Shown: positions 16,205 through 50,396 of the stretch, piece by piece
How positions within the stretch are numbered: position 1 is the stretch's first letter
How the letters are laid out: each line of letters begins with the position of its first letter
Source of the DNA: Escherichia coli
GTDB taxonomy: Bacteria; Pseudomonadota; Gammaproteobacteria; Enterobacterales; Enterobacteriaceae
DNA: 64,000 nt
Strand: one strand, 5' to 3'
Assembly (NCBI RefSeq): GCF_002854065.1
Contig: NZ_CP024147.1
Made by a program: the position numbers and the translations under genes
The notes under the pieces: generated by a model
Told to the model about the DNA's origin: nothing
Database searches by the model: none
What the model saw: the letters and a program-made list of their open reading frames with translations, nothing else

Positions 16205-16252
16205 AAAAAAAAAAGAAAGGTAACTTCCCCCGCGAGAGGGAAGTTACCTTTC
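16205..16252 (-). terminator. Intrinsic-terminator-like hairpin in the ygcW leader
   Basis: Perfect 15-bp stem GAAAGGTAACTTCCC / GGGAAGTTACCTTTC, 8-nt loop, then U10 on minus-strand RNA, ending 24 nt before the ygcW ATG. Confidence 0.55.
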
Positions 16253-16427
16253 TCATTATCTCTGGTAACTGGAGATAATTTTTAGCATAAGGGCATAACT
16301 GCTAATGTGATCGTAATCACAGTGTGATATTCGCATTATCAAATAGTTTTAAAAAGCAGAAGCGTGATTACTCTCACACAACACCTCTGCTTTCCATGTT
16401 ATTTCTTATTGCAATTACTAGAGACCT

Positions 16428-33975: not shown

Positions 33976-34049
33976 CGGACGTCTTGTCGAGTAGCAATCG
34001 GCTTTTTATGACGCTGGTTTCAGATTGGTGACAAAGTGCCTGTGTTTAT

Positions 34050-34085
34050 GCCGGATGCGGCGTTAACGCCTTATCCGGCCTACAA
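34050..34085. repeat. REP element downstream of barA
   Basis: GCCGGATGCGGCGTTAACGCCTTATCCGGCCTACA. Confidence 0.7.
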
Positions 34086-36909: not shown

Positions 36910-38262
36910 TTATTGCCCCGCGACAGGTTTCAGCTCGATACGCTTGATATCGCCCACCAGCACCAGGTAGCTCAGTACCGCGATTAAGGCATGAACACCA
37001 ACATAAATCAGCGCCCCATTAAAGGAGCCAGTCGTGCCAACGATATAACCAATTGCGATTGGCGTGACGATGCCAGAAATGTTACCGAACATGTTGAACA
37101 GGCCACCGGAAAGACCGCTGATCTCTTTTGGCGCGGTATCTGCCATTACTGCCCAACCCAGCGCCCCAATGCCCTTACCGAAGAAGGCCAGCGCCATAAA
37201 GCCGATAATCATCCACTCAACGTTGACGTAGTTGCAGAACACCATCACCATCGACAGCAACATGCCCATTACGATCGGTGTTTTACGCGCAATGTTCAGC
37301 GATCCCGTGCGGCGCATCAGCCAGTCGGAAATAATCCCACCCAGCACACCACCGATAAAACCACAAACCGCCGGAACGGAAGCCACAAAGCCCGCTTTCA
37401 GAATCGACATCCCACGCGCCTGCACCAGATAAACCGGAAACCAGGTAATGAAAAAGTAAGTCAGGGCGTTGATACAGTACTGACCGATATAAACGCCGAT
37501 CATCATCCGTGACCCGAGCAGTTGTTTGATCTGCCCCCACTTCACGCTGAACGGCACTTTAACTTTGGTGTTTTGCTGATCCATATTGATCAGCGCGCCA
37601 CCCGCGGCGATGTACTCCAGCTCTTTCTGATTTACCCCCGGATGTTGATTTGGCTCGTGGATGACTTTCAACCAGATAAAGCTGATGACAATCCCCAGAC
37701 CGCCCATAAAGAAGAAGACGTGTGACCAGCCCACTTCATGCGTCAGCCAGCCCATAATCGGCGCGAAGATCACCGTTGCGAAGTATTGAGCGGAGTTAAA
37801 AATCGACACCGCCGTTCCCCTTTCCTGCGCCGGAAACCAGGCCGCAACAATGCGACTGTTGCCGGGGAAAGATGGCGCTTCAGCAAGCCCGACCAGGAAG
37901 CGCAGAGTAAACAGGGCAACGATAATGCCGAATCCACTAAAGATATCGACGAAGCCTTGCAGCAAGGTAAACATCGACCAGATAAAGATCGACCAGAAGT
38001 AGACGCGTTTTGAACCAAAACGATCCAGCAACCAACCACCAGGGATCTGCCCGATAACATAAGCCCATGAGAAGGCAGAGAACACATAGCCCATTCCCAC
38101 GGGATCAAGGCCGATATCTTTGGCCATTTCCGAACCGGCAATAGAAAGCGTAGCGCGGTCGCCGTAGTTGAAGGATGTGACGATAAACAACATCACCACT
38201 ATCCAGTAACGAGCATTCGTGCGTTTTTCCACACTGCTCGCAGCCTGACTTAAAGAACTCAT
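36910..38262 (-). CDS. gudP: MFS glucarate/galactarate transporter, 450 aa
   Basis: ORF translation, multi-TM. Confidence 0.92.
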
Positions 38263-38696
38263 TGTTGCACTCCTGAAAATTCGCGTTAACCACGCTCACT
38301 CTGGACTGCGACATCGCCAGGAAATCAGAGGTGACGTAGGGTGTTTTTTGCCGTTTTTATAGGTCGTTCGCCGAATACGGCGCGTGTTTATATCTGGCAA
38401 TAGCAGTATAAAAAGCGCGCCATAGCGGCTCACCGTGCAACAACACAACATTAATGCGTTCAATGAGGCCCGATTTTGGCATTAGCCCTGGACGGTGGAA
38501 TCCACTTCACGGAAATGAAAACAAGAACAAGAAAGGAAGGGTTAAAACGAAGAAATAAAGAAGAGTATGAAATGGATCGCTTGACTCCAGGCAAACGCCA
38601 GTAAAAATCCGCGCTATGAAGCAGTTTTTACTGGCATTTGCCTGAAAAGATTCGATTCAGCACCGCTAAAACGACATTTACCGCTCGCTGAACATA

Positions 38697-39146
38697 TCAG
38701 GACAACAGCGTGCCCCACTGTTCGACCCACGGATTTGATTCCGTTTCCGGTTCCGGGTTCTCACTGGCGTCAATCAACAGCATTTCGCCAACCCGCTGAG
38801 CGCTCTGTTCCTGCAACAAGGCATCGAACTGTTTGCCGCCATTGCAGAAATTCACATAACTACTGTCGCCGAGCGCAATCACGCCATAACGCAGATTCGG
38901 CTGGAAGCCCAGACTATCTTTGATTCCCTGAAAGAGCGGCACAATGCTATCAGGAAGGTCGCCCTGCCCGGTCGTGGACGTAACCACCAGAACATACTTA
39001 TCCTGATAGGGCAGCCAGTCGCTTAATTCAGGATCTTCAAATACCGTTGCTTTGTGGCCCTGTGTGGTCAGAATTGCTTCTGCTTCTTCCGCCACTAACA
39101 GCGAATTTCCGTACATGGTGCCGACAAAAATACCAATTTCCGCCAT
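38697..39146 (-). CDS. yqcA: Flavodoxin-like protein, 149 aa
   Basis: [26 protein letters not shown]... Confidence 0.9.
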
Positions 39147-40317: not shown

Positions 40318-40686
40318 AATAAAAAAAGGGAGCACTGTATTCACAGTGCTCCCGGTTCGTTTCGCAGCATTCCAGCTACATTTGTTGCTCCCTGCTCATC
40401 CTTGACAACTTTTCCTCTGGCCTTGCGGCCAATCGTTCATCCTGAACTATTGCTTCCTGCTCACACCACCCCGATGTGATACTTCATCCTGAAGTGTCCC
40501 TGGCCTTCCTGACCCACCGAATCATCCTGACCGGTTCTCATTCTCCATCCTGGAGGTGTCCTTTAACGCGTCCTGCGTCATCCTCTTCGCTTCATCCAGA
40601 AGCCTTTCCCTGAAACACCATCCTGGTGTGTCCTTCAGAAGTGTCATCATCCTGATGTTCACTTCGTTGTCTGACTCCCTGTCGAC
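40318..40686 (-). ncRNA. csrB: CsrB small RNA (CsrA-sequestering), about 369 nt
   Basis: Minus strand starts GUCGACAGGGAGUCAGACAACG..., carries well over a dozen CAGGA(U/A)G-type GGA motifs (seen as CATCCTG on plus strand), ends in hairpin plus U-run at 40321-40358. Confidence 0.92.
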
Positions 40687-49850: not shown

Positions 49851-50396
49851 TAGCTACCTCTCTCTGATTCAAAACAGGGCAATAATGTTGTTCCTTTCAC
49901 ACTATTGAATTAGCCGTTTAATTACCCACCATCTTCTTCCTGATTAACAAGAAAGAAATTCACAAGCTTATATTTTGTGACCTGGTTCAACTAATCACAG
50001 TAAATAACTGCAAGTTCTCTTTTTATAACCCCATTAAAAATGACCGCTCTTAAAAATATTTATCAAAACGGTCATTTTTCTATTCACCCAAGCCAGGAAT
50101 GCCCGTTTTCGGCATAAACAATTAATACGGTCATCTGGTTTGTGTTTTTTATGATTTATTTTCTGAAACGGGCATGAAATTTCGATTATTAAAGTGATGG
50201 TAGTCACATAAAGTCACCTTCCAGCTAATAAGTGTGACCGCCGTCATATTACAGAGCGTTTTTTATTTGAAAATGAATCCATGAGTTCATTTCAGACAGG
50301 CAAATATTCACTGATATGAAGCCCGAACTCGCTGGTTTTGCACTTTTGAAAACATAACCGATTACGTGCTTAAGCTTCTGAACCTAAGAGGATGCT

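Follow-up and report, generated by a model that had tools for sequence, protein, structure and literature searches.

On the minus strand of the 64-kb stretch of Escherichia coli chromosome analysed here, which we refer to as the window, the genes syd, csrB, yqcC, truC and yqcA are followed by a 434-bp spacer and then by gudP, gudX and gudD. The spacer separates the flavodoxin gene yqcA (38697..39146, minus strand) from gudP (36910-38262, minus strand), and 52 nt past the yqcA stop codon, on the gene (minus) strand, it contains a core hairpin at 38588..38644, downstream of yqcA and upstream of gudP as a preliminary description of this DNA had placed it. Adding 2,883,838 to a window position gives the corresponding K-12 coordinate, which puts the hairpin at 2,922,426-2,922,482 in K-12 MG1655, where its sequence is identical. 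The arms of the inverted repeat, CAGGCAAACGCCAGTAAAAA (38588-38607) and TTTTTACTGGCATTTGCCTG (38625-38644), are exactly as first described and flank a 17-nt spacer that forms the apical region. Of their 20 positions 19 are Watson-Crick; the lone mismatch, C:A in the plus strand, reads as G:U in minus-strand RNA. In the minimum free energy fold, three added weak pairs (UUU with GAG) lengthen the gene-strand stem to 38585..38647, and the total stem length on the minus-strand RNA comes to 23-27 bp. By the fold and the ortholog alignment, the apical region (38608..38624, minus strand) has an 8-nt loop closed by an inner stem of 4 bp (CUGC/GCGG) with a single bulged A. A feature absent from the preliminary description is a U5 run within the 3' arm (38603..38607, minus strand), which is paired with an A5 run at 38625-38629.

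This 20-bp inverted repeat is real and far above chance. As minus-strand RNA the hairpin folds with -36.8 kcal/mol (z = -9.0) and as plus-strand RNA with -30.2 kcal/mol (z = -7.9), and in neither case did any of 200 shuffled sequences fold equally well; the wider minus-strand segment 38565-38667 reaches -46.3 kcal/mol (z = -6.3). The arm sequence occurs at two places only in the window, against 0.03 expected, and the repeat is the longest of all inverted repeats in the 64 kb. At megablast sensitivity, the spacer with its element is found at one place per genome and is matched in 5425 of 5426 complete E. coli genomes. The E. coli variants that we sampled, drawn from the classes of lowest identity, all keep the stem unchanged, and their differences are confined to the 5' flank and the apical region, the latter being the sole site of stem-proximal polymorphism. 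The spacer matches amount to 5427 places, one of which lies on a plasmid record instead of a chromosome. Strain 2014C-4135 (NZ_CP027310.1) diverges completely after ...GGAGTCAAG, immediately past the hairpin, and in NZ_CP095856.1 the spacer match is limited to the yqcA-proximal third; judged from their sequences, these two cases suggest an insertion or deletion breakpoint adjoining the hairpin. Elsewhere in the window we noted a perfect 16-nt inverted pair with an 8-nt loop (16214-16253), a REP-like palindrome (34047-34082) and a 22-nt A/T-rich palindrome (50036-50079).

RefSeq carries no feature at the hairpin, neither in K-12 nor in the listed records taken in even steps across the 5425 matching genomes. 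A permissive Rfam scan of the E. coli spacer and a gathering-threshold scan of six orthologous loci returned chance miRNA and snoRNA matches and CsrB only, and a literature search retrieved nothing that pairs yqcA with gudP and nothing relevant for yqcA. Two plus-strand candidates were also rejected, namely a 42-aa open reading frame that ends in the 5' arm, which is not conserved, and a promoter TTGACT-16-AAAAAT at 38581-38608, whose -10 element is not conserved in other genera.

No U-run stands 3' of the hairpin on either strand (minus, GAGUCAAGCG; plus, AAAAGAUUCG), and a consensus scan for terminators found no terminator-like site at the E. coli hairpin. The earlier statement that the repeat is not a canonical terminator is therefore correct for E. 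coli, but it overlooks canonical terminator orthologs in other genera. We compared 80 enterobacterial yqcA loci, most of which have gudP after yqcA, and found a homologous element in Escherichia, several Citrobacter, Salmonella, Superficieibacter and Raoultella-like genomes. Conservation across gudP upstream regions, which the preliminary description had named as a check, is partial: of 65 species loci, about 23 keep the element, about 7 have it in degenerate form and the others lack it. Of the enterobacterial yqcA-gudP spacers, about two thirds are without it. Outside Escherichia it is a canonical terminator with an A-tract, a 5-7 bp G+C-rich stem, a short loop and T5-7 (for example AAAAGCCTTTCATTTGAAAGGGTTTTTAC). 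The scan returned a terminator-like site on each strand of Citrobacter L008 and, in Raoultella L076, on the gene strand; in both, a U-rich tract follows the G+C-rich stem-loop within 0-2 nt.

In the alignment between genera the T-run is nearly invariant, and the pairs that UGCCAGU forms with ACUGGCG, just outside the A/T runs, are kept. One outer pair covaries (AU 7, CG 4, UA 3, UG 1). Pairing is maintained in 77% of cells, compared with 30-51% after sliding the partners by 1-3 columns, and between 4 and 6 of 500 shuffles match the observed paired fraction, both-sides changes or covariation score. Covariation across the whole structure is modest, and the inner stem together with one outer pair supplies much of it. 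The five distal pairs CAGGC/GCCUG that give the 20-bp repeat are confined to Escherichia, where the inner G+C-rich stem has decayed; this lengthening of the outer stem buried the U-tract in it. Gene-strand RNA is the stabler fold in 14 of 18 homologs, including 6 of 6 Escherichia, because non-Watson-Crick positions become G:U on the gene strand. The comparison of loci shows that the E. coli hairpin is descended from a canonical, partly bidirectional intrinsic terminator, its apical region being the decayed remnant of the G+C-rich terminator stem and its U5 run a relic U-tract.

Published maps of RNA 3' ends bear on what the hairpin does. PMC10667835 re-analysed SEnd-seq libraries from the wild type and from pnp, rnb and rnr deletion strains, with a single library per mutant. 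Its Table S3 ('RNase II ends in WT') lists a minus-strand end at 2,922,422, labelled 'gudP<->yqcA', whose share of ends falls from 0.49 in the wild type to 0 in the rnb deletion (FDR 4e-4, one library each), and, under 'PNPase ends in WT', an end at 2,922,423 whose share falls from 0.107 in the wild type to 0 in the pnp deletion (FDR 0.03, one library each). Table S4 ('transcripts partially degraded by exoRNases') pairs 2,922,422 with 2,922,417 at a distance of 5 nt, in a row that we assigned to the RNase II sheet from its column layout. Table S7 gives operon 368 as 2,922,421-2,925,313 on the minus strand, with syd, csrB, yqcC, truC and finally yqcA, after which the unit ends at the hairpin. 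csrB itself (40318-40686, minus strand) lies two genes upstream, and the operon table treats syd-csrB-yqcC-truC-yqcA as one complex unit with the hairpin at its end.

Converted to window coordinates, the mature 3' ends in Tables S3, S4 and S7 fall at 38583..38585 on the minus strand (K-12 2,922,421-2,922,423) and the end in the rnb mutant at 38579 (K-12 2,922,417). Measured from the 20-bp core, the wild-type ends are 3-4 nt further on, and from the extended stem 0-1 nt; the RNA therefore terminates ...GCCUGGAG(U). All of these mapped ends lie in non-U sequence past the full stem, unlike those of a canonical terminator, which are found in the U-tract. They have instead the features of an exonuclease stop: a stable stem-loop (-36.8 to -46.3 kcal/mol) directly 5' of the mature end, and an end that is lost or becomes 5 nt longer in mutants of 3'-to-5' exonucleases, as the published tables report from one library each. 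The curated Term-seq 3' ends of PMC7815308 (Adams et al.) include none in the spacer under three conditions, which may reflect low expression, and the TERMITe supplements have no entry for the site. The hairpin is thus already implicit in published high-throughput tables, where it has neither annotation nor individual description.

Transcription beyond the hairpin is sensitive to inhibition of Rho. Supplementary file 2 of PMC7815308 counts 114 reads upstream and 23 downstream in the untreated sample and 112 and 90 after bicyclomycin (Rho score 3.98, p = 9e-8), so that the downstream/upstream ratio rises from 0.20 to 0.80 in 800-nt counting windows, a score that merges read-through from yqcA with effects of bicyclomycin on transcripts that start inside the spacer. 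The termination region is reported at 38280 on the minus strand (K-12 2,922,118); given the 800-nt windows, this places Rho-dependent termination somewhere in the spacer and at no single base. Directly 3' of the hairpin on the transcript, the segment 38489..38592 (minus strand) is C-rich, G-poor and rich in YC dimers and constitutes a candidate region for Rho loading (rut). Along it, 78-nt windows contain 16-18 YC dimers and have a C/G ratio of 2.1-2.3, which reaches or exceeds the 99th percentile of the window. Rho-dependent read-through with a rut-like C>G tract downstream, at the 800-nt resolution of the published counts, is a further feature of exonuclease-stop sites.

Together, these data make it likely that the hairpin is the 3'-terminal stem-loop of (syd-csrB-)yqcC-truC-yqcA transcripts and stops 3'-to-5' exonucleases after termination that occurs mainly downstream and depends on Rho. 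RNA polymerase would pass the hairpin, which has no U-tract after it and whose old U-tract is buried in the stem; Rho would load on the C-rich, G-poor RNA right downstream and terminate transcription before gudP; PNPase and RNase II would then digest the untranslated tail in the 3'-to-5' direction up to the 23-27-bp stem; and a defined, protected 3' end would remain, with the gudP regulatory region spared read-through. By stopping the exonucleases, the hairpin would both set and protect the mature 3' end of the operon. The stem, the position of the 3' end, its dependence on exonucleases, the bicyclomycin-sensitive read-through and the base composition form the direct basis of this reading; we infer the order of events and the importance of protection for the stability of yqcA mRNA. 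A role at the 3' end of a gene-strand mRNA would also account for selection on pairing in the gene-strand RNA. Of the two ideas in the preliminary description, an RNA stability element and an operator of the glucarate regulon, the first has fared well, with a published 3' end at the foot of the stem that depends on RNase II and PNPase, a better fold on the gene strand and some covariation; the second has not, for reasons given below.

The main rival to an exonuclease stop is direct termination by the hairpin as a non-canonical intrinsic terminator that has no U-tract, with release at about 38579 and trimming of 5 nt by RNase II. The rnb-mutant end, 6-9 nt past the stem, is compatible with such hairpin-dependent termination, this being the typical distance from hairpin to release, and the ancestor of the element was itself a true terminator. 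The tail GAGUCAAGC, however, is not U-rich and the scan found no terminator-like site there, the stem is by established knowledge far longer than is usual for terminators, the downstream/upstream read ratio climbs to as much as 0.80 once Rho is inhibited, and the end at 2,922,423 disappears in the pnp mutant. We consider this alternative unlikely.

Somewhat less probable still is that the hairpin forms the end of a conserved regulatory module of about 160-190 nt between yqcA and gudP, acting as a 3'-UTR-derived regulatory RNA or as a sib-like sensor of read-through. In most genera the proposed parts are a CCCTCCC...GGGAGGG hairpin, a hairpin with a GCCAG loop, the segment CUGAAUCGWGUUAGC, the invariant GGCAWWUGCC box and a terminator that lengthens upon read-through. 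If it were true, the module would couple truC-yqcA transcription, or read-through from the csrB operon, to the glucarate genes, and the E. coli version would be a remodelled one. A separate strong hairpin stands right after the yqcA stop codon in most non-Escherichia genera, and E. coli is without it. In twelve of the loci, among them Citrobacter L008 and Raoultella L076, we observed that the first ~190 nt after the yqcA stop form a conserved non-coding stretch containing the covarying CCCTCCC..GGGAGGG hairpin, the second hairpin with its GCCAG loop, AACGAC, a -10-like A...T pattern and ACTGAATCGWGTTAGC; most of this stretch has been lost in E. coli. The stretch matches no Rfam family and contains no open reading frame conserved among genera. 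What RNAalifold retained from 14 non-Escherichia sequences was the first hairpin plus a GGC/GCC stem of 3 bp, and nothing else.

Three further readings are each very improbable. The first has the hairpin terminate a small regulatory RNA, whether an independent one or one derived from the yqcA 3' UTR, with the seed CUGAAUCG(W)GUUAGC. It draws on the ~160-190 nt of conserved non-coding sequence between yqcA and the canonical terminator in other genera, with its conserved single-stranded segments, its -10-like A...T pattern and the lack of a conserved open reading frame, but there is no Rfam match in E. coli or six other genera, the SEnd-seq tables give neither a 5' end nor a processing site just upstream, the E. 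coli 3' end as mapped, ...CCUGGAG(U), has no U-tail, E. coli has no -10-like element, and RNAalifold across genera supports the first hairpin only, besides the 3-bp stem.

The second, a retroregulator of the lambda sib type, is hardly credible either. It would have read-through of the inner terminator produce an extended duplex, whose cleavage by RNase III destabilises the yqcA message. The architecture matches, since transcription of complementary flanking sequence lengthens the terminator hairpin; covariation is seen in the outer pairs; and a near-perfect duplex of 23-27 bp is, by established knowledge, long enough for RNase III. About half of the wild-type ends, however, lie at the foot of an intact stem and not within the stem, which argues against efficient cleavage by RNase III.

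The third is the idea, put forward in the preliminary description, that the palindrome is a DNA operator at which a dimeric regulator, CdaR or another, controls gudPXD. A palindromic site upstream of gudP does invite it. The 5' arm contains a GGCAWWTGCC box that does not vary between genera and persists in Kosakonia and Phytobacter, in which the hairpin has decayed; a similar box, GGCTAATGCCA, is conserved closer to gudP at 38477-38487; and the promoter fragment of a CdaR biosensor (PMC4551912) includes the hairpin, an observation which, precisely because the fragment contains it, is uninformative on whether the hairpin is needed. The arm, however, is absent, with up to 3 mismatches allowed, from 10 kb around garP-garD and from 6 kb around cdaR, in agreement with visual inspection, and the element is missing from about two thirds of the spacers, which leaves a role as an operator of the glucarate regulon unsupported. 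The gudP-proximal block TGCACRGTGAG, by contrast, occurs in 65 of 65 loci, against about 23 for the hairpin element. Covariation at one stem position preserves pairing over sequence, the mismatch is tolerated as G:U on the transcribed strand only, the hairpin lies ~190-245 bp upstream of the likely gudP promoter, and GCAWWTGC, with 8 occurrences against 11.5 expected, shows no enrichment in the window. We judge an operator to be a very poor prospect, and our literature search returned no CdaR footprint, ChIP or SELEX data. A CdaR motif built on three copies of GGCWAATGCCA in the spacer and two of GCAWWTGC in the garP-garD spacer was rejected as evidence for an operator on the same grounds, the 8-mer being unenriched and the full arm absent from the gar and cdaR regions; the recurrence itself is kept as a lead.

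Several observations on the sequence around the gudP promoter stand apart from these readings. The near-palindromic 10-bp box GGCAWWTGCC (38633-38642, minus; 38590-38599, plus), to which the box at 38478-38487 (minus) is similar, is invariant in 14 of 14 aligned non-Escherichia sequences; it is explained by neither the RNA model nor the operator model. A probable gudP promoter, GTGAGC-17-TATACT on the minus strand, has its -10 element at 38406-38411 and its -35 element at about 38429-38434, and the same arrangement is the sole promoter-like match in Citrobacter L008. The conserved blocks upstream of this promoter, TTTTCATTTCCGTGAAG and CAATGTTGTGTTGTTGCACGGTGAG, are candidate CdaR sites. The minus-strand block 38566-38581 (GTCAAGCGAnnnnnTTTCACAC; in E. 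coli AGCGATCCATTTCATA), which comes directly after the hairpin and is conserved across genera, may be a distal CRP site for gudP: of the 10 positions in the CRP consensus TGTGA-N6-TCACA it has 8-9. It overlaps the 3' ends mapped in the RNA.

Identification of the hairpin as an exonuclease stop would supply a concrete, annotatable 3' boundary for the yqcC-truC-yqcA unit that is unmarked in RefSeq, and would account for the insulation of the glucarate operon from upstream transcription. It would also provide a tidy case in which a canonical intrinsic terminator was remodelled in one lineage into a long exonuclease-blocking stem combined with Rho-dependent termination. Because the widely used CdaR glucarate biosensor fragment (PMC4551912) has the hairpin, transcription coming into it from upstream would encounter this element. 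As such, the hairpin is an ordinary kind of mRNA 3'-end element and opens no new question in the field.

Among known systems, REP/BIME stabilisers of mRNA 3' ends are likewise intergenic hairpins able to block 3'-to-5' exonucleases. We rejected a REP/BIME element because the hairpin is single copy in each genome; its arm is moreover unique in the window and has no similarity to the REP consensus. The lambda sib/tI retroregulator also has a terminator hairpin that becomes a longer duplex upon read-through, but the dominant 3' end here is an intact stem. Bidirectional intrinsic terminators share their anatomy with the orthologs at the same position in Citrobacter, Salmonella, Superficieibacter and Raoultella, and E. 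coli keeps the A5 and U5 runs. In E. coli, however, the stem beside the U-tract consists of only 4 weak pairs and the mapped ends lie outside the U-tract, and the flanking genes are co-directional with no convergent partner evident. The best match is with the stem-loops that stop exonucleases at Rho-terminated ends, described by Dar and Sorek 2018 (PMC6061677) and listed as '3' exoRNase stop' sites in PMC10667835. They share with the E. coli element a hairpin directly upstream of the end, dependence on PNPase and RNase II, bicyclomycin-sensitive read-through and a C-rich tract after the hairpin. What sets the E. coli stem apart from them is its unusual length of 23-27 bp and its visible derivation from a terminator, with the U-tract inside the stem.
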